Below, piece after piece: positions 1,195 to 47,959 of a stretch of 64,000 nt of DNA (the first letter of the stretch is position 1; every line of letters begins with the position of its first letter). The notes below the pieces were generated by a model. It saw only the letters and a program-made list of their open reading frames with translations. It had not been told where the DNA came from and did not search any database. This DNA is from Candidatus Poribacteria bacterium. GTDB lineage: Bacteria > Poribacteria > WGA-4E > WGA-3G. The stretch is from NCBI GenBank assembly GCA_965198235.1, contig OZ240248.1, forward strand, positions 448,001 through 512,000. Reading direction: 5' to 3'. Made by a program: the position numbers and the translations under genes.

Positions 1195-1392
1195 TTAAAG
1201 TCCGTCGGGCAATTCCGCTTCATCGATCAGCATTACTGGGATGCCTTCACGGATCGGATAGCGACGCTGACACTCGCCGACACACACCAGTTTCTGTGCT
1301 GCTTCATCGTGTTCTATCTCACCTTTACATGCTGGACATGCGAGAATGTCAAGTAGCGTTTTTGAGAGTGTATATGCGTTTTCCGAGTTCAA
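1195..1392 (-). CDS. Trm112/YcaR-like small zinc-ribbon protein
   Basis: LLDILACPACKG...C...C.RRYPIREGIPVMLIDEA signature; probable TTG start at 1392; the longer ORF start lies in a repeat element. Confidence 0.88.
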   Translation of the reverse strand: MNSENAYTLSKTLLDILACPACKGEIEHDEAAQKLVCVGECQRRYPIREGIPVMLIDEAELPDGL

Positions 1393-1410
1393 ACTTTTAA
1401 TTATTCCTTG

Positions 1411-1645
1411 CGGTTCGGTGAGGTAGGTTGAATGACCAACGATCCTCTCCGTAGATCCGCCCTCCATTTCATTACGGGCTACAACTTTGAACCTTAATCG
1501 ATTGACACAACTCTACGGTTCGGTGAGGTAGGTTGAATGACCAACGATCCTCTCCGTAGATCTGAAGAAACACCCAAGCAAAAACCCCTCCATTTCATTA
1601 CAGGCTACAACTTTGAACCTTAATCGATTGACACAACTCTACGGT
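1411..1645. repeat. Tandem duplication of a 105-bp REP/MITE-like unit; second copy (1516-1641) carries a 23-nt insert
   Basis: CGGTTCGGTGAGGTAGGTTG...CAACTCTA repeated at 1411 and 1516; related inverted copy at 28571-28647. Confidence 0.95.
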
Positions 1646-4466
1646 GTGAAGTCTTAGCCACCGTGGCATCTCTTATATTTCTTGCCGCTCTCTTATATTT
1701 CTTGCCGCTTCCACAAGGACAGGGTGCGTTTCTACCGACCTTAGGCGTGTTCCCCATTGCCTGTTGTGAAGCAAATTCGGCATCATCGCTGGTTGCGGCT
1801 GCGGTGCTGCCTTGAGGGTGCCTCGGCTGTGGTCTACGCTGTCTACCCGTTCGCCGACTGGGGACTCTGCGCGGTGCCTCGGTATTGACGCGAGATTTGA
1901 AGATGAACTCACTGACCTGCTCTTCAATCTGTTGATACATACTTTCAAAGACAGAGAGTGCTTCGTTTTTGAAAACGACGATCGGGTCTTTGCCGCCGTA
2001 TCCTGCGCCGAACCGAATACCTTCCTCAATATAGTCGATGTTATGGAGGTGTTCTTTCCAGTGGTCATCAATTCTATCCAAAAGGAGTAAGCGTTCGAGG
2101 ACGCGCATCATCTCTGGACCCATTTCGGCTTCGCGTTCTTCATAAGCGGCACGCAACGTCTCTAACGTCTGTTCTTGAACTTCCTCTGGACTTGCCTGTG
2201 CCAAGGGCGTTTTCCAAAGTGGCTCGATTGGGAATGTGGTCGTCAACCACTGCTGAAACCTGTCGGGGGTTTCAAGGGGACTTCCTGCTTTTTCTCCCAT
2301 ATTGTCCTCAATTGCATCTCTGACGACCCTCTCAATCATCCCCCAAATTGTCGTTTTCAGGGAGGCAGGAGTTTTAGTGTCCTTTTCAGCGAGTGCGGCG
2401 AGTCCACCATCTTCTGCTGTACCCTCGTGTTCTGGTAATTCGACGACATCTGTGGCGGAAGCGAGGACGGTGTCACGCAAGGTGTAGATGGTGTCGCGCT
2501 GTGTATCCATAACATCATCAAACTTGAGGAGATTTTTGCGGATTTCAAAGTACATCTGTTCAACACGCGTCTGTGCTTTCTCAATGGATTTGGTGACCCA
2601 CGGGTGTTCTAATGGGACATCATCATCCATTCCGACGCGTGTCATTAACCCTTGTAAACGTTCAGAACCGAATTTTCGCATCAATTCGTCTTCAAGGGAG
2701 AGGTAGAATCGAGATGAGCCTGGATCTCCTTGTCTACCGGAGCGTCCACGGAGTTGGTTATCAATACGTCGGGACTCGTGGCGTTCAGTGCCGATAATAT
2801 GGAGACCGCCGGCGGTTAATACCTTCTCTTTGTTTTTGTCGCAAATGGCTTGCGCTTCTGCAAGAGCTGCCTGAAATTCTTCGGACTCCGGGGACAGTGC
2901 CTCTGTCTTCGCTTTCTGTTTCCGCAGCGTTTCGATTGCCATACCTTCGGGGTTACCGCCAAGGAGAATGTCTACACCTCTACCTGCCATATTCGTTGCG
3001 ATTGTTACCGCACCGGGGACACCTGCTTGCGCGATGATATCGGCTTCGCGCGTGTGTTCCTTAGCGTTCAAAACCTGATGTCGGATTTTTCGGTGTTTGG
3101 TTCTGAGCATTTTGCTCAATTTCTCGGAATTTTCAATCGAAATAGTGCCGACAAGGACTGGACATCCCATTTCGGTCTGTTCGACGATATCTTGTAAGAC
3201 GGCGTTGTATTTTGCGTCCTCGGTACTGTAAATTTGGTCGGGATGGTCCATCCGGATCATAGGTTCGTTGGTAGGGATGACAGAGACCTCTAATCCGTAG
3301 ATGTGTGCGAATTCGTTCGCTTCAGTCGCGGCGGTACCCGTCATACCTGCAAGTTTGTCGTACATGCGGAAGTAATTTTGGTAGGTAATCTTAGCACCGG
3401 TTTCACTTTCCTCGACGACTTTAACACGTTCCTTTGCCTCGATTGCTTGATGGAGTCCTTCGCTGAGCCGTCTTCCGATCTGCTTTCGTCCTGTGAATTC
3501 GTCAACGAGAAGGACTTCGCCGTTTTCGACGAGATAATCGACATCGCTTTTATAGAGATGGTGCGCAGTGAGTGCTTGATTGACGTGATGCACCATAGCG
3601 ATGTTGGTATGTTCATAGAGGTTCCCCACGCCGAGACGACGTTCGACTTCCTCAACGCCTTCATCGGTAAGGGTTACACTGCCTCGCGATTTCCCCTCTT
3701 GGTCGATTTGGAAGTGTTCGCTTTCTCGGAGCTGTGCGACGACGCTGTTAATTTGCCTGTAGAGATCAGGGGGTTTACCGGAGGGTTCTGAGATGATGAG
3801 CGGCGTTCGGGATTCATCAATGAGGATGCTGTCAACTTCGTCAAGGATGGCGTAGACATGCCCGCGCTGTACTTTATCTTCAATTGAGAGTGATTTGTTG
3901 TCCCAGAGGTAATCGAATCCAAATTCGCTGTGAACGCCGTAAATGATGTCTGCCTTGTATCCGAGCCTTTTCTGTTCCTTCGGCATTAAGCTGAGCGTCA
4001 ATCCAACAGAGAGTCCGAGGAAGTTGTAAATCTTGCCCATCCATTCGGCATCACGGCGTGCGAGATAGTCATTGACGGTAGCGAGATGCACCCCTTTTCC
4101 AGTCAATGCGTTTAGATAGATGGCGAGGGTTGAGGTGAGCGTTTTGCCTTCACCTGTTCGCATCTCTGCGATGGTACCTTGGTGGAGCGCGATGCCTCCC
4201 ATAATTTGGACATCGTAGTGTCGCTGTTTTAAGGTTCGCACGGCGGCTTCACGGACGACAGCGAAAGCATCAGGTAAGAGATCATCAAGCGATGCACCGG
4301 CATCCAGCTGTCGACGAAATTCGGGGGTTTTGGATTGCAGTTGTGCGTCGGTGAGTTTTTTGTTTTCAGGTTCGCGCTGGTTGACAGCTTCGACGATGTC
4401 ACGAAACTTTTTGACATCGCGGTCCTCTTTACTACCGAAGACTTTAGTTATCATTTTTTGGAACAT
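1620..4466 (-). CDS. secA: Protein translocase subunit SecA (last residues frameshifted by a 20-bp duplication)
   Basis: MRTGEGKT, DEVDSILIDESRTPLIIS, TNMAGRGVDI, RGRSGRQGDPG and KVGRNAPCPCGSGKKYK motifs. Confidence 0.98.
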   Translation of the reverse strand: MFQKMITKVFGSKEDRDVKKFRDIVEAVNQREPENKKLTDAQLQSKTPEFRRQLDAGASLDDLLPDAFAVVREAAVRTLKQRHYDVQIMGGIALHQGTIAEMRTGEGKTLTSTLAIYLNALTGKGVHLATVNDYLARRDAEWMGKIYNFLGLSVGLTLSLMPKEQKRLGYKADIIYGVHSEFGFDYLWDNKSLSIEDKVQRGHVYAILDEVDSILIDESRTPLIISEPSGKPPDLYRQINSVVAQLRESEHFQIDQEGKSRGSVTLTDEGVEEVERRLGVGNLYEHTNIAMVHHVNQALTAHHLYKSDVDYLVENGEVLLVDEFTGRKQIGRRLSEGLHQAIEAKERVKVVEESETGAKITYQNYFRMYDKLAGMTGTAATEANEFAHIYGLEVSVIPTNEPMIRMDHPDQIYSTEDAKYNAVLQDIVEQTEMGCPVLVGTISIENSEKLSKMLRTKHRKIRHQVLNAKEHTREADIIAQAGVPGAVTIATNMAGRGVDILLGGNPEGMAIETLRKQKAKTEALSPESEEFQAALAEAQAICDKNKEKVLTAGGLHIIGTERHESRRIDNQLRGRSGRQGDPGSSRFYLSLEDELMRKFGSERLQGLMTRVGMDDDVPLEHPWVTKSIEKAQTRVEQMYFEIRKNLLKFDDVMDTQRDTIYTLRDTVLASATDVVELPEHEGTAEDGGLAALAEKDTKTPASLKTTIWGMIERVVRDAIEDNMGEKAGSPLETPDRFQQWLTTTFPIEPLWKTPLAQASPEEVQEQTLETLRAAYEEREAEMGPEMMRVLERLLLLDRIDDHWKEHLHNIDYIEEGIRFGAGYGGKDPIVVFKNEALSVFESMYQQIEEQVSEFIFKSRVNTEAPRRVPSRRTGRQRRPQPRHPQGSTAAATSDDAEFASQQAMGNTPKVGRNAPCPCGSGKKYKRAARNIRDATVAKTSHRRVVSID

Positions 4467-4543
4467 TTTTTTACCTATTTGCTCCTTGCCACCTTTCACG
4501 TTGTGAAAGGTGGTATATCTCTAAGTCATGATGGACTTGGTAT

Positions 4544-6573: not shown

Positions 6574-6642
6574 AATTTGGCCTCGTCCTTTTGATGTATG
6601 ATAATATATTTAATCTGAAGATGCAAATTTATTTTTTATTTC

Positions 6643-6912
6643 GGAAACCTCGTCAGCGGCAGGACGCAGGGAAGAGGCGAGGTTGGGGAACCTCGCCAGC
6701 GGGGAGGTAGCGTGTTTTTTGTCTGAATCACGGACTGACGCGGATTACGCAGATTTCGCGGATTTTTTATTAGGCATCAGCGGCCGGTGATGGAATGTGC
6801 GGTGGTTGTCTGAACCAAGATTTACAGGATTTTCGGATTTGCAGGATTATAGAACTTTCTTGATTGAAAATTGTCCTTTATAGGATTACCTAAATATTTT
6901 ATTAAACTTCAT
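6643..6912. repeat. Cluster of small repeats: GCGAGGTT..AACCTCGCCAGC palindrome (6676-6700) and two GTCTGAA-led 9-mer (GGATT-containing) tracts
   Basis: ggcgaggttggggaacctcgccagc; gtctgaatcacggactgacgcggattacgcagatttcgcggatt; gtctgaaccaagatttacaggattttcggatttgcaggatt. Confidence 0.75.
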
Positions 6913-6984
6913 CTGGAGTGCGACTAATCGTTCGTTGGGCGATTCAGGGATGGGAGCGGAGTGTCTGTGAGTTTTGGGTTTTGC

Positions 6985-7013
6985 TTGACTTTGGGTGCGT
7001 TATGTTCTATACT
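6985..7013 (+). promoter_or_regulatory. Sigma70-like promoter with no downstream plus-strand CDS
   Basis: TTGACT-N17-TATACT. Confidence 0.5.
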
Positions 7014-7023
7014 AATGTATAGT

Positions 7024-7183
7024 AGGACTTACGCAATTTTTCTATGAGCACCTCCGTATGACGCGCCGCTGGCGAGGTGTTTTTGCTGGGGGTTTTTGCT
7101 TGGGGTTTTTGCTTGGGTGTTTCTGTGGATTTCTGCGGATTTCCCCTAGAAACCTCGCCAGCAATGGATGTTGCGTAAGCCCT
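7024..7183. mobile_element. MITE-like element with AGGACTTACGCAA/TTGCGTAAGCCCT inverted ends, enclosing a REP palindrome that carries a stuttered insert
   Basis: 13-bp imperfect terminal inverted repeats; internal GCTGGCGAGGT...AAACCTCGCCAGC arms. Confidence 0.7.
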
Positions 7184-7229
7184 GTCAAGCATAAATGTAA
7201 CTCAAATTGACGGTTTGAAGTGGAGGAGG

Positions 7230-7931
7230 TTATCTCTGCTTGAGTTGTCCCCATATTAGGGTTAATCTTATCTCTGAAGAGACGTTCAGTCCGGAGATGG
7301 TGAAGGAATCCGCCCATGCCGCGCCGACCCATTCGTTTGCGATGTTAATACCTTCCATGACGAAACCGAGAATTTCAATCTTATCGAAGTTTGCATCTTG
7401 GAATGCTGTACGGAGTTCGCCGTCTGCGAACAGCACGAAATGCCCTGAATTAAATTGGAGTTCCACCTTTGTGAGGACATCCGTTTCCCAGCGGGTGCGC
7501 GGTTCTCTGGAGAGCCGAGTTCGGAAGGGGTGACTGCTCCCTTTACCGTCGAAACGCCTCGCTCTGATTTCATCTGGGAAAAACACGTAGAAGAACGGAT
7601 CCTCTTCCGGGGTGTCCGGAAAACGGCGTCCCACACAAAAACCGAAACGTGTTTTGTCGCCACCAAAGTCGTTTATCGTGATTGTGAAGTTTCTGTAGGG
7701 TGGTGGGAGCGCGGTGAATTGGTAGAGTTCGTATTGCACATCCCATTCCCGCTTGACTTCTGCGTGTAAGAACCCGTCGCTGATTTTCCAGATGGAATCG
7801 TTTCCGACGACTCGCCACGCTTCGGGTTTTTTCGCATCGAAATCGTCGTGCCAGATCTCGGCGGAGGTGGAAAGGGTGCAGCTAATGAGCGTATAAAGAA
7901 GTATGAGGAGTGTTGTGTTTATGTTTGGCAT
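7230..7931 (-). CDS. Secreted concanavalin/LamG-like beta-sandwich protein with C-terminal LT..WG.LK motif (paralog of 8846-9541)
   Basis: Signal peptide; WHDDF..W....W.I.DG.L start; ends RLTLIWGQLKQR; fold assignment is inference. Confidence 0.7.
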   Translation of the reverse strand: MPNINTTLLILLYTLISCTLSTSAEIWHDDFDAKKPEAWRVVGNDSIWKISDGFLHAEVKREWDVQYELYQFTALPPPYRNFTITINDFGGDKTRFGFCVGRRFPDTPEEDPFFYVFFPDEIRARRFDGKGSSHPFRTRLSREPRTRWETDVLTKVELQFNSGHFVLFADGELRTAFQDANFDKIEILGFVMEGINIANEWVGAAWADSFTISGLNVSSEIRLTLIWGQLKQR

Positions 7932-9541: not shown

Positions 9542-9613
9542 AGGTTCGACGGGGCGAGGTGTTTTTGCTTGGGTGTTTCCCTTAAGAAACCTCGCCAGTG
9601 AATTATAATCGGG

Positions 9614-20993: not shown

Positions 20994-23267
20994 ATGAAGA
21001 CTACACAATTCCGCTTCCATGTGGGTACGCTTTCCGTGCGTGTACATCTGCGCAGCACTATTCAGACCTATTTTCTCAGTTCGGTTCTCTTGTTAACTGC
21101 CATCCTCTTTCCGCCCAACGTTCATGCGCAAGATTACACCCAATTACAATTACCTGAAGGTGCGAAAGCTCGTATTGGGAAAGGGACTATAAACGATATA
21201 AGGTTTTCACCTGATGAAAGCCTTGTTGCCGTTGCTGGCTCTATCGGTGTTTGGCTCTATAATGCGCACACCGGTGCCGAGGTTGACCTGCTCACGGGGC
21301 ATACGCAGTCGGTTTTGAGCGTGGCGTTCTCGCCGGATAGCAAAACCCTCGCCAGTGGCAGTTGGGACACCACGATCCGTTTGTGGGATGTCCAAACTGG
21401 GCAACATAAAGTTTCCCTTACGCAGCATACGTATGGTATTTGGGCAGTGGCGTTCTCATCGGATGGAAAAACTCTTGCCAGTAGCAGCTATGGATCCGTT
21501 CGTCTGTGGGATATAGAAACCGGGCAGCACAAAGCACTCCTGAAGACACAGACGGGTAGAGCGAAAGCTCTCGCGTTCTCGCCCGATAGCAGAATCCTCG
21601 CGAATGGGGGGCAAGCTGTACCGCTTACAAGTAACAATTATCTGATTCAGTTGTGGGATCCCGATACTGCCCAACACCTTGCGACGCTTGAGGGACACAC
21701 GTCTGAGATTGAGGCGGTAGCGTTTTCATCGGATGGAAAAACACTCGTGAGTGCAAGCTGGGACCGCACAATTCGTTTGTGGGATGTAAGCACTAAAAGC
21801 CAGCTATCAACTTTCATAGGGAGTTCGGATTGGCTCACAGCGGTTGCATTTTCTCCCGATGGCGAAACGCTTGTCAGTGGCAGTCGACGCGGTGAAGTCC
21901 GTTTATGGGGCGCGAGCACTGGGCAACATATCAGAACACTGCGTGCACATACGCAAGAAGTTGCTGATATTGTGTTTTCTCTGGATGGCACAACCTTTAC
22001 CAGTGCAAGTCGTGACGGGACAATTCAGTTGTGGAATGCAAGTGGCGGTCCCCTCCAAGAAGCTACACTAAAAGGGCATACGGATGGGATTACTGCGATG
22101 GCACTCTCTCCGAACGGTCAGACTCTTGCAAGTGGAACTTACGGTCGCAGACTTGCCAATGGAAGTTGGGAAGCCCCGATTCGGTTGTGGAATACAGAGG
22201 CACAACGACCGGAAACAGTGTTAAAAGGGCATACAAAGCAGATTAATGCGTTAGCATTCTCCCCAAATGGAAAAATTTTTGCCAGCGCGAGTAACGACAA
22301 AACAATTCGGTTGTGGGACGTAAATACTGAGCAATCACCATTCGTTATTGATTTCCAACCACAGGCGATTCTTACAGAGCATACTGACGGAGTCCTCGCG
22401 TTGGCATTTTCTCCAGATGGCGGAACCCTCGCCAGCGGCGGTGGAACAGATCCGATTCGGTTATGGGATGCCCACACTGGTCAACAACAAGCAATCCTTG
22501 AAGGTGCCTCAGAAGCCATCTATTCTATGGCGTTTTCACCAGATGGCAGCACCCTTGCCAGTGGTAGTTGGGACGGCGTGATTCGGTTATGGAACGCAGA
22601 GACTGGGGAACTGAAGACCATGCTTAGAGAGATTTCTCGTTCAGGACATCGGGTTAGAACTGTCACTTTCTCACCAAATGGGGAAATCCTCGCCAGTTGT
22701 TCGGACTATTATGGGATTCAATTGTGGGATGCAAATACGGGTATCCGTCTTTTCACGTTCAGTGGTGGGCATACGGATGATGTCTATTCCCTCGCGTTCT
22801 CACCCGACGGTAAAACGCTTGCGAGTGGTGGTAATGACAGGACAATTATTTTCTGGGATGTCGCTACGGGTGGCTACCTGAGTGCCCTTGAAGGACATAC
22901 ACACGGCATCGCTGCCTTAGCGTTTACACCAGATGGTGGGACGCTTGCCAGCGGAAGTTGGGATGGCACGGTTCTTCTATGGGATATCCTATCTGCCGAA
23001 CGTGATCCGTCGTTAATGCCGGTTTCACAAACGCCGTGGGATGTCAACGGCGATGGAGTTGTCAGCGTCCAGGACTTGGCACTCGTTGCCTCTGGTTTCG
23101 GGCAGAATGCTCCCGATGTCAACGGCGATGGAGTCGTGAATATCTTGGATTTGACGCTGGTTGCCTCTCATTTGGATCCAAAGCCTGCTGATGTCAATAG
23201 TGATGGAGTCGTGAATATCTTGGATTTGACGAGCGTGGCGAGCTACCTCGACGAAGAGCAGGAGTAG
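20994..23267 (+). CDS. Secreted WD40-repeat protein (double propeller) with three dockerin-like repeats
   Basis: LPEGAKARIGKG leader, about 14 WD40 repeats, 3 x DVNxDGVV. Confidence 0.92.
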   Translation: MKTTQFRFHVGTLSVRVHLRSTIQTYFLSSVLLLTAILFPPNVHAQDYTQLQLPEGAKARIGKGTINDIRFSPDESLVAVAGSIGVWLYNAHTGAEVDLLTGHTQSVLSVAFSPDSKTLASGSWDTTIRLWDVQTGQHKVSLTQHTYGIWAVAFSSDGKTLASSSYGSVRLWDIETGQHKALLKTQTGRAKALAFSPDSRILANGGQAVPLTSNNYLIQLWDPDTAQHLATLEGHTSEIEAVAFSSDGKTLVSASWDRTIRLWDVSTKSQLSTFIGSSDWLTAVAFSPDGETLVSGSRRGEVRLWGASTGQHIRTLRAHTQEVADIVFSLDGTTFTSASRDGTIQLWNASGGPLQEATLKGHTDGITAMALSPNGQTLASGTYGRRLANGSWEAPIRLWNTEAQRPETVLKGHTKQINALAFSPNGKIFASASNDKTIRLWDVNTEQSPFVIDFQPQAILTEHTDGVLALAFSPDGGTLASGGGTDPIRLWDAHTGQQQAILEGASEAIYSMAFSPDGSTLASGSWDGVIRLWNAETGELKTMLREISRSGHRVRTVTFSPNGEILASCSDYYGIQLWDANTGIRLFTFSGGHTDDVYSLAFSPDGKTLASGGNDRTIIFWDVATGGYLSALEGHTHGIAALAFTPDGGTLASGSWDGTVLLWDILSAERDPSLMPVSQTPWDVNGDGVVSVQDLALVASGFGQNAPDVNGDGVVNILDLTLVASHLDPKPADVNSDGVVNILDLTSVASYLDEEQE

Positions 23268-28570: not shown

Positions 28571-28647
28571 GTAGCCCGTAATGAAATGGAGGGCGGATCT
28601 ACGGAGAGGCACGTGAATGTACAAACCTACCTCACCGAACCGCAAGG
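28571..28647. repeat. Dispersed copy (inverted) of the element at 1406-1482
   Basis: GTAGCCCGTAATGAAATGGAGGGCGGATCTACGGAGAGG and AACCTACCTCACCGAACCGCAAGG match the reverse complement of 1406-1482; only the central spacer differs. Confidence 0.92.
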
Positions 28648-28659
28648 TAAACTTAAAAA

Positions 28660-47711: not shown

Positions 47712-47811
47712 TGAAGAAATCCACAGAAATACCCAAGCAATACGCAGAAATCCGCAGAAATCCGCAGAAACACCCAAGCAAAAACCCCTATCAAAAACCC
47801 CAAGCAAAAAC
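47712..47811. repeat. 100-bp stuttered array of AGAAATCCGC / CCCAAGCAAAAAC units
   Basis: Same motif as inserts at 1563-1585, 7079-7146 and 9561-9582. Confidence 0.92.
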
Positions 47812-47959
47812 CCCCGCTGGGGCTTAGCGGAATTATACTTTCAAATCAACGAAAAGTCAAACTAAAGTCCAGAGAACGCAACCAAACCCGTATCTATTGG
47901 ACAAGGTCCCCGTGCCTTAGTCCAATAAACTTTATGAGATAGTTTGAGGAACAAAGACT

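Follow-up and report, generated by a model that had tools for sequence, protein, structure and literature searches.

How does a sequence of 21 nucleotides (nt) come to sit in one member of a tandem pair and to be absent, at the same point, from the other? The locus that raises this question lies in a stretch of 64,000 nt, here called the window, which corresponds to positions 448001 to 512000 of contig C1 in the 5.17-Mb genome (G000, two contigs) of a poribacterial sponge symbiont. The chromosome is a single 5.1-Mb contig. The pair is located between the stop codon of secA, a minus-strand gene, and the start of a Trm112-like small gene, and its two copies are arranged head to tail. Copy 1 (1411 to 1515, 105 nt, minus strand) is empty: it combines a part belonging to a dispersed element that we call H1 (about 1385 to 1486) with about 30 nt of unique spacer, and it has CG at 1458-1459. 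Copy 2 (1516 to 1641, 126 nt, minus strand) is filled.

In place of CG, copy 2 has 23 nt (1563 to 1585, minus strand), which hold a 21-nt cassette unit at 1565 to 1585 (GTTTTTGCTTGGGTGTTTCTT on the minus strand) and show a junction change from C to T at 1563. Direct reading and a global alignment agreed on an insertion of 21 nt, AAGAAACACCCAAGCAAAAAC, at 1565 to 1585. The alignment gave two substitutions, C1458/T1563 and G1476/A1602, and the A at 1602 in copy 2 is the sole difference from copy 1 outside the insertion and its junction. The remaining 103 of the 105 unit positions are identical, and chance is therefore ruled out. The first 4 nt of the unit, CGGT, are repeated 3' of copy 2 (1642 to 1645) as a microhomology at the duplication junction. 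Because the duplicated unit starts at CGGT, copy 2 lacks the part of H1 that carries the ribosome-binding site (RBS) and start codon. The tandem is absent from the TRF listing and rests on direct alignment. An earlier note on this DNA had described two tandem copies of a 105-nt unit in which 23 nt replace CG and one more base is substituted. Reading and alignment confirmed this observation at the level of the sequence. The note had also pointed to a third, empty copy of the host element. We found that copy at 28571 to 28659 on the plus strand; it is identical across 39 nt around the site and runs directly into the ATG of the following open reading frame (ORF).

H1 is a dispersed element of about 94 nt. 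Iterated nhmmer searches starting from copy 1 found 156, then 237, and then 241 genomic copies. The 3' end of the element reads AAGGA...AATTAAAAAATG. An ORF of at least 80 codons begins at this end in 148 of the 233 copies that reach it, compared with 492 of 2000 random positions, and the offset of the ORF start is the same in 85 of those 148 copies. H1 is a dispersed leader that supplies an RBS and a start codon, i.e., a repeated, movable translation-start leader. In the tandem pair, the H1 of copy 1 supplies the RBS and start of the Trm112-like gene (1195 to 1394, minus strand), whose start codon is deduced from the sequence. A structured RNA with a conserved fold was considered for H1 and was not supported. 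The consensus fold is weak (-2.9 kcal/mol), the middle region has a mean z of -0.5 over 224 copies, and a search of Rfam 15 at E-values up to 1 found no match in 1150 to 1800. At gathering thresholds, Rfam 15 reported two tRNAs only in the whole window. In its length and its copy number of about 241, H1 resembles the MITEs of 5' untranslated regions (Correia/NEMIS, ERIC, and RUP) that are named in an excerpt of PMC3733652. It also resembles the elements of that excerpt in adjoining coding sequences and in its strain-variable presence. Unlike them, H1 shows no terminal inverted repeats, and it ends in the RBS and start codon itself, with the fixed offset in 85 copies.

The earlier note had proposed that all genomic copies of the host be scored at the insertion site. 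An insertion of at least 8 nt follows H1 model position 24 (GGAGGG^CGGATC) in 43 of the 241 copies. In 40 of these the insert is the cassette, in one orientation, and 17 of the 40 inserts are exactly 21 nt long. The insert of copy 2 is the commonest cassette variant and is found in 7 of these 17. Three H1 inserts hold a foreign hairpin between the two ends of the cassette. A second H1 site follows position 55, where 9 of the 241 copies have the cassette, all in the opposite orientation. The bases around the first site differ sharply between the two states. Of the filled copies, 39 of 40 have A at position 26, where 147 of 148 empty copies have G. Positions 23 and 24 are both G in every one of the 40 filled copies; among the empty copies, G is found there in 105 and 133 of 148. 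Position 22 is polymorphic in both states alike (17 A and 23 G when filled, 77 A and 69 G when empty). In the filled state, the neighbouring bases are constant, with GG on one side and CA on the other. The insertion event replaces about 2 nt and its ends are fixed within 2 nt, and the tandem pair shows exactly that.

The filled copies are scattered among several H1 subfamilies. The nearest H1 relative is empty for 26 of 38 filled copies, and the filled state does not cluster significantly (12 observed versus 7.7 expected; permutation p = 0.11). These patterns read as recurrent gain of the cassette, which would argue against the spread of one H1 subfamily. We also asked how the site folds. The filled H1 site folds no better than shuffled sequences (z of +1.1 and +1.2), and the empty site has a z of -0.2 to -0.5. 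The H1 site is unfolded; therefore, a hairpin loop is not required for the cassette.

Hairpins are nonetheless among its hosts. In the window, a 68-nt composite array at 7076 to 7143 (plus strand) lies in a GGCGAGG...CCTCGCC hairpin, and a unit cassette at 9558 to 9579 (plus strand) lies in the loop side of another hairpin of this type. A 101-nt composite array at 47714 to 47814 (minus strand) separates a hairpin of the CCCCAGCGGGG type from its conserved tail. Empty loops dominate the GGCGAGG...CCTCGCC family, with 7 to 8 nt between the two words in 167 of 268 strand-wise matches. The hairpin at 9558 gives a second empty/filled pair: its orthologue in the sister genome G014 is an empty GCGAGGT-TAG-AAACCTCGC, and the insertion of 21 to 22 nt in G000 comes directly after GGCGAGGT. 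Among 116 matches fetched from public genomes, the cassette occupies the same host classes. A test of whether the flanks of arrays form stems was set aside: the flanks beside arrays pair no better than random ones (3.67 versus 3.60), and the array boundaries swallow part of the stems. Because this test was poorly posed, the hairpin context is shown instead by the loop-spacing and folding analyses. The window is also variable around one of these hairpins: about 650 nt at 6580 to 7230, which include the array at 7076 to 7143, correspond to a place where all four sister genomes fetched have 4 to 6 kb of extra DNA.

Across hosts, a purine-rich RRGK pattern stands just before the cassette, whose last bases are TTCA or CCCA. 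Two claims of the earlier note need to be qualified in this light. It had taken the host of the tandem pair for a REP family different from that at 7079 and 9561. The hosts do differ, the latter two being GGCGAGG...CCTCGCC hairpins, but H1 is not a REP family. We rejected H1 as a REP hairpin because it ends in an RBS and start codon; its insertion spot is unfolded (z about 0). The note had also held that targeting is not tied to one sequence. Different hosts are indeed occupied, but targeting is not loose: site and orientation are fixed in H1 (40 of 40 at one site and 9 of 9 at the other), and the flanks follow RRGK.

The cassette core is GTTTTTGCTTGGGTGTTTC followed by TT or CC. A genome-wide search for an 18-nt core of the insert, allowing 2 mismatches at most, gave 264 matches, and 96 of these are exact. 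A k-mer scan of the genome found 321 cassette arrays totalling 12,347 nt, of which 206 are at most 29 nt long; the longest is 200 nt. The longer arrays are composed of sub-units, either 13 nt (GTTTTTGCTTGGG or GTTTTTGATAGGG) or 10 nt (TGCGGATTTC), and their varying number is probably explained most simply by replication slippage. The arrays avoid coding DNA, with 98 of 317 inside stop-to-stop frames of at least 150 codons, versus 86.6% of the genome. Unit cassettes are 93% identical to one another and host elements 67%. The cassette is not palindromic. No inverted repeats are formed by its two ends, GTTTTTGC and GGTGTTTC, and it is accompanied by no target-site duplication, the 2-nt replacement standing in its place. 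Between GTTTTTGC and GGTGTTTC, at one fixed spot of the cassette, lies a 45-nt hairpin element at about 10 of its 14 loci. This element begins with AATGTAATACAAGG and forms a perfect 11-bp hairpin, the halves of which are sometimes duplicated internally (e.g., at C1 753,065-753,219, 4,225,8xx, and 4,068,9xx). Cassettes show a weak strand bias, 171 to 146 (p = 0.18), and the cumulative GC skew is without clear turning points.

The direction of the change at the tandem pair can be read from related genomes. Synteny of the secA-trm112 spacer is kept throughout the genus. In three sister genomes (G006, G014, and G018), the H1 next to trm112 is empty and has the identical CG. Beyond it, the same three genomes have a second, different H1, which has the cassette in G006 but not in G014 or G018. 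In the spacer of a fourth sister genome (G004), the cassette is in another hairpin instead. None of these four genomes has the 105-nt tandem. The spacers extracted from more distant species (L007 to L009 and L019) are 91 to 98 nt long, and no H1 was seen in them on reading. The three sister orthologues are empty; therefore, the empty state is ancestral, the duplication is lineage specific, and copy 2 gained the cassette afterwards. The earlier note had judged the insertion to be recent and to post-date or accompany the duplication. The single other base that differs between the copies, the empty orthologues, and the lack of a tandem in the sister genomes bear this out.

The cassette is confined to a narrow lineage and varies within it. 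Allowing at most 1 mismatch, a 19-mer of the cassette gave 9 to 179 matches in each of the 18 genomes examined from one Poribacteria genus. Another 7 genera of the order, represented by 12 genomes, had no match, and a control with the pattern reversed had none in any genome. Coding DNA is 74 to 90% identical between these species, yet the consensus of the cassette is unchanged. Such exact conservation of the 19-mer could also reflect a selected function, for example as a site bound by a protein or an RNA, and not mobility alone. In public data, 77 of the 80 exact matches listed are from Poribacteria metagenome-assembled genomes (MAGs), and no cyanobacterium is among the matches listed. A match in a MAG labelled Pyrinomonadales (L095), in seemingly ordinary sequence, was set aside, as about 4 chance matches to a 19-mer are expected in 596 Gb. 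Along about 20 kb of conserved synteny, five species have 8 arrays (3, 3, 1, 1, and 0), with no position in common. The cassette thus behaves, as far as these sequences indicate, like an element that turns over quickly between species.

Strains differ as well. Contig C2 (43.9 kb) is a second haplotype of C1:775,767-815,774, with 99.3 to 100% identity, and the sample is multi-strain. Two structural differences between C2 and C1 were examined. One is a 230-nt segment that contains a whole H1 and two cassettes; it lies between two ORFs that run together in C1. The other is a small element of about 39 nt inserted in another H1-like copy.

Small dispersed repeats, SDR1 to SDR8, were reportedly described by Elhai et al. 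in 2008 in Nostoc punctiforme and its relatives, and are said to be highly repeated, presumably mobile units of about 20 to 27 nt that encode nothing, have no known mechanism, and insert at short, defined sites, some of them inside other repeats. The cassette is like the SDRs in its size (21 nt, or 23 with the junction bases) and in its many dispersed copies (321 arrays). It also shares presence or absence with exact boundaries, as in the tandem pair, in the hairpin at 9558 of G000 versus G014, and in filled versus empty H1. Further likenesses are nesting (the cassette in H1 and in hairpins, the 45-nt element inside the cassette), restriction to a narrow lineage, and the lack of coding capacity. 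An excerpt of PMC2884548 describes small dispersed repeats of the Nostocaceae, about 20 bp long, as possibly mobile. According to excerpts of PMC5861425, SDR5 uses HIP1 as its insertion site, and among HIP1-rich cyanobacteria SDR-like repeats were not found outside the Nostocaceae. The Nostoc SDRs are also mentioned in PMC3116915. Unlike the SDRs, to which it is likened by their description, the cassette occurs in Poribacteria rather than Nostocaceae and has no hairpin of its own. It also forms modular arrays of 10- and 13-nt sub-units and replaces 2 nt at its site. A literature search found no paper on such repeats in Poribacteria. By analogy, the cassette appears to behave like the SDRs of Nostoc, as a near-minimal mobile DNA that would be moved in trans, which would rank it with the smallest such units known.

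The reading we favour, which we hold to be probable with clear reserve, is that the cassette is an SDR-like micro mobile element that inserts at fixed sites and is moved in trans by a putative enzyme. In this scenario, slipped-strand duplication at the 4-nt microhomology would have copied the 105-nt unit, consisting of most of H1 and about 30 nt of spacer, and one copy would afterwards have received the commonest 21-nt cassette unit. The putative enzyme may read a short purine-rich target (RRGK^) and join a copy of the cassette there. VNTR slippage explains the 105-nt duplication at CGGT, and probably also the number of 10- and 13-nt sub-units, but it cannot put one 21-nt sequence into unrelated dispersed sites. 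The cassette fits no described transposition chemistry, as it has no hairpin, no terminal inverted repeats, and no target duplication, and 2 bases are replaced. Our commitment is limited to an enzyme-defined, sequence-specific insertion in trans, which we infer. As to the reaction itself, cut-and-join on single-stranded DNA of the HUH/Y1 type is our preferred guess, a tentative one that is more likely wrong than right.

Could copy 2 instead have copied the cassette from a filled H1 elsewhere? By short-patch ectopic conversion or replication template switching through the flanking conserved blocks, the cassette would be no more than a converting variant. There are 40 filled H1 copies as possible donors, the filled state always brings the same neighbours (GG and CA), and hairpin-rich repeats favour template switching. 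However, the tract ends vary by no more than 2 nt among 40 copies, and conversion has not reached the nearest polymorphic position of the host. By eye, none of the printed flanks of filled H1 copies shows a donor with the flanks of copy 2 or its T variant, and the cassette also occupies hosts that have no homology to H1. Homologous conversion fits poorly with such fixed ends and unrelated hosts, and we regard this account as improbable, though deserving of some weight. The assembly could also have joined filled and empty strain haplotypes into a false tandem. More than one strain is present in the sample, as seen from C2 and from the several haplotypes visible in the flanks of the tandem in public run contigs. 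The four public read runs consist of short contigs that end inside repeats, and none spans 1411 to 1645 or a second small tandem duplication, of 20 bp, that lies 25 bp away in secA. Against such an artefact, the copies meet in a clean microhomology of 4 nt, the junction takes in unique spacer, and the chromosome was assembled as one 5.1-Mb contig. Tandems of similar size also occur elsewhere on the chromosome (34 TRF rows with a period of at least 60 nt, some overlapping one array), and several are built of H1 copies. An artefact is thus quite unlikely, and even a true one would leave a filled/empty polymorphism.

RNA-templated synthesis, in the manner of telomerase, retrons, or DGRs, would use a master RNA to write both the cassette and the sub-repeats of 10 and 13 nt. 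The arrays do consist of few exact sub-units in variable number, and 18 species have retained the identical 19-mer although their genes are just 74 to 90% identical. However, ordinary replication slippage also varies the number of sub-units. A search for the reverse transcriptase domain RVT_1 (PF00078), which scored in three control genomes, gave no match in G000, a genome that is 96.3% complete; therefore, reverse transcription is unlikely. No master locus was found around the longest arrays, which lie between ordinary genes. We consider such synthesis very unlikely, and the word "templated," which the earlier note had applied to the insertion, is unproven. Least credible of all is that the filled form is ancestral and that, once the unit had been duplicated, the cassette was excised precisely from copy 1. 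What is seen is two states side by side, and precise excision is possible for cut-and-paste elements. However, a loss would have to restore the CG dinucleotide exactly, and three sister species are empty with the identical CG.

A master locus was sought at the two longest arrays. The genes there encode PhyH, AAA_21 with DUF4276, a sulfatase, and a GHMP kinase, none of which is an obvious candidate. At C1:1,321,5xx-1,326,1xx (L147), two arrays that are among the longest (111 and 200 nt) bracket a gene block that contains the AAA_21 ATPase and DUF4276 pair, the sulfatase, and the GHMP kinase. The genome has six Y1 genes of the IS200/IS605 type. Three of them are divergent, RAYT-like, and flanked by REP hairpins, and they score below the NCBIfam cut-off for RAYT. 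These three (C1:606,918-607,262, 1,898,775-1,899,119, and 3,853,757-3,854,101) have on both flanks abundant hairpins with a CTATAGACAT-type tail, in a REPtron-like arrangement, and a tandem array of such hairpins (121 nt x 4) adjoins one of them. None of the six Y1 genes has a cassette array at its flank: the shortest distance is 1.3 kb, and for four of the six there is no array within 2.5 kb. The RAYT-like Y1 gene occurs in 13 of the 18 genomes that have the cassette and in 6 of the 12 that do not. With this distribution and no adjacency, we rejected the RAYT-like Y1 protein as the enzyme.

REP, BIME, and REPIN elements with their RAYT (Y1 HUH) transposases are treated in excerpts of PMC3116915, PMC6006769, and PMC3733652, and the last of these attributes to Di Nocera et al. 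REP dimers inserted within palindromes. The cassette is like such elements in being short, intergenic, very abundant, and nested, and some cassettes lie within such hairpins. Unlike them, it is not palindromic, does not flank Y1 genes, and does not co-occur with the RAYT-like gene.

Ever since the Nostoc SDRs were described, it has been a puzzle how units of about 20 nt spread, being too small for recognisable transposon ends. A second, unrelated lineage with a nonpalindromic element and an exact target narrows the possible chemistries. These features speak against reverse transcription, transposition by inverted repeats, and homologous conversion of the ordinary kind. The empty site, the filled site, and the genus-wide contrast of presence and absence are a substrate for an enzyme hunt. 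H1 supplies the RBS and start codon of many genes; therefore, insertions in it may alter expression. A bolder proposal, which we regard as unlikely, is that in this one genus an undescribed trans-acting DNA-writing activity without reverse transcriptase stamps the unstructured 21-nt sequence at purine-rich targets in leaders and hairpin repeats. It would thereby re-tune translation via about 150 H1 leaders at gene starts, and the cassette would be a heritable regulatory "stamp" and not selfish DNA.

Two minor features of the window remain. The 3' end of secA (1620 to 4499, minus strand) has a 20-bp tandem duplication (1669 to 1709), which is exact and falls in the last codons. Because it shifts the frame, secA remains open into the copy 2 spacer. 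The shift, which comes after ...CPCGSGKKYKR, removes the last Cys-His from the C-terminal zinc motif and lengthens the ORF by 22 codons. In the sister species, secA ends in KRCHGG-stop and has no 20-bp duplication. The duplication could be real or a consensus error. Finally, a 75-nt in-frame tandem repeat of 2.6 copies is found at 23040 to 23231, and we take its translation to resemble dockerin-type calcium-binding repeats.
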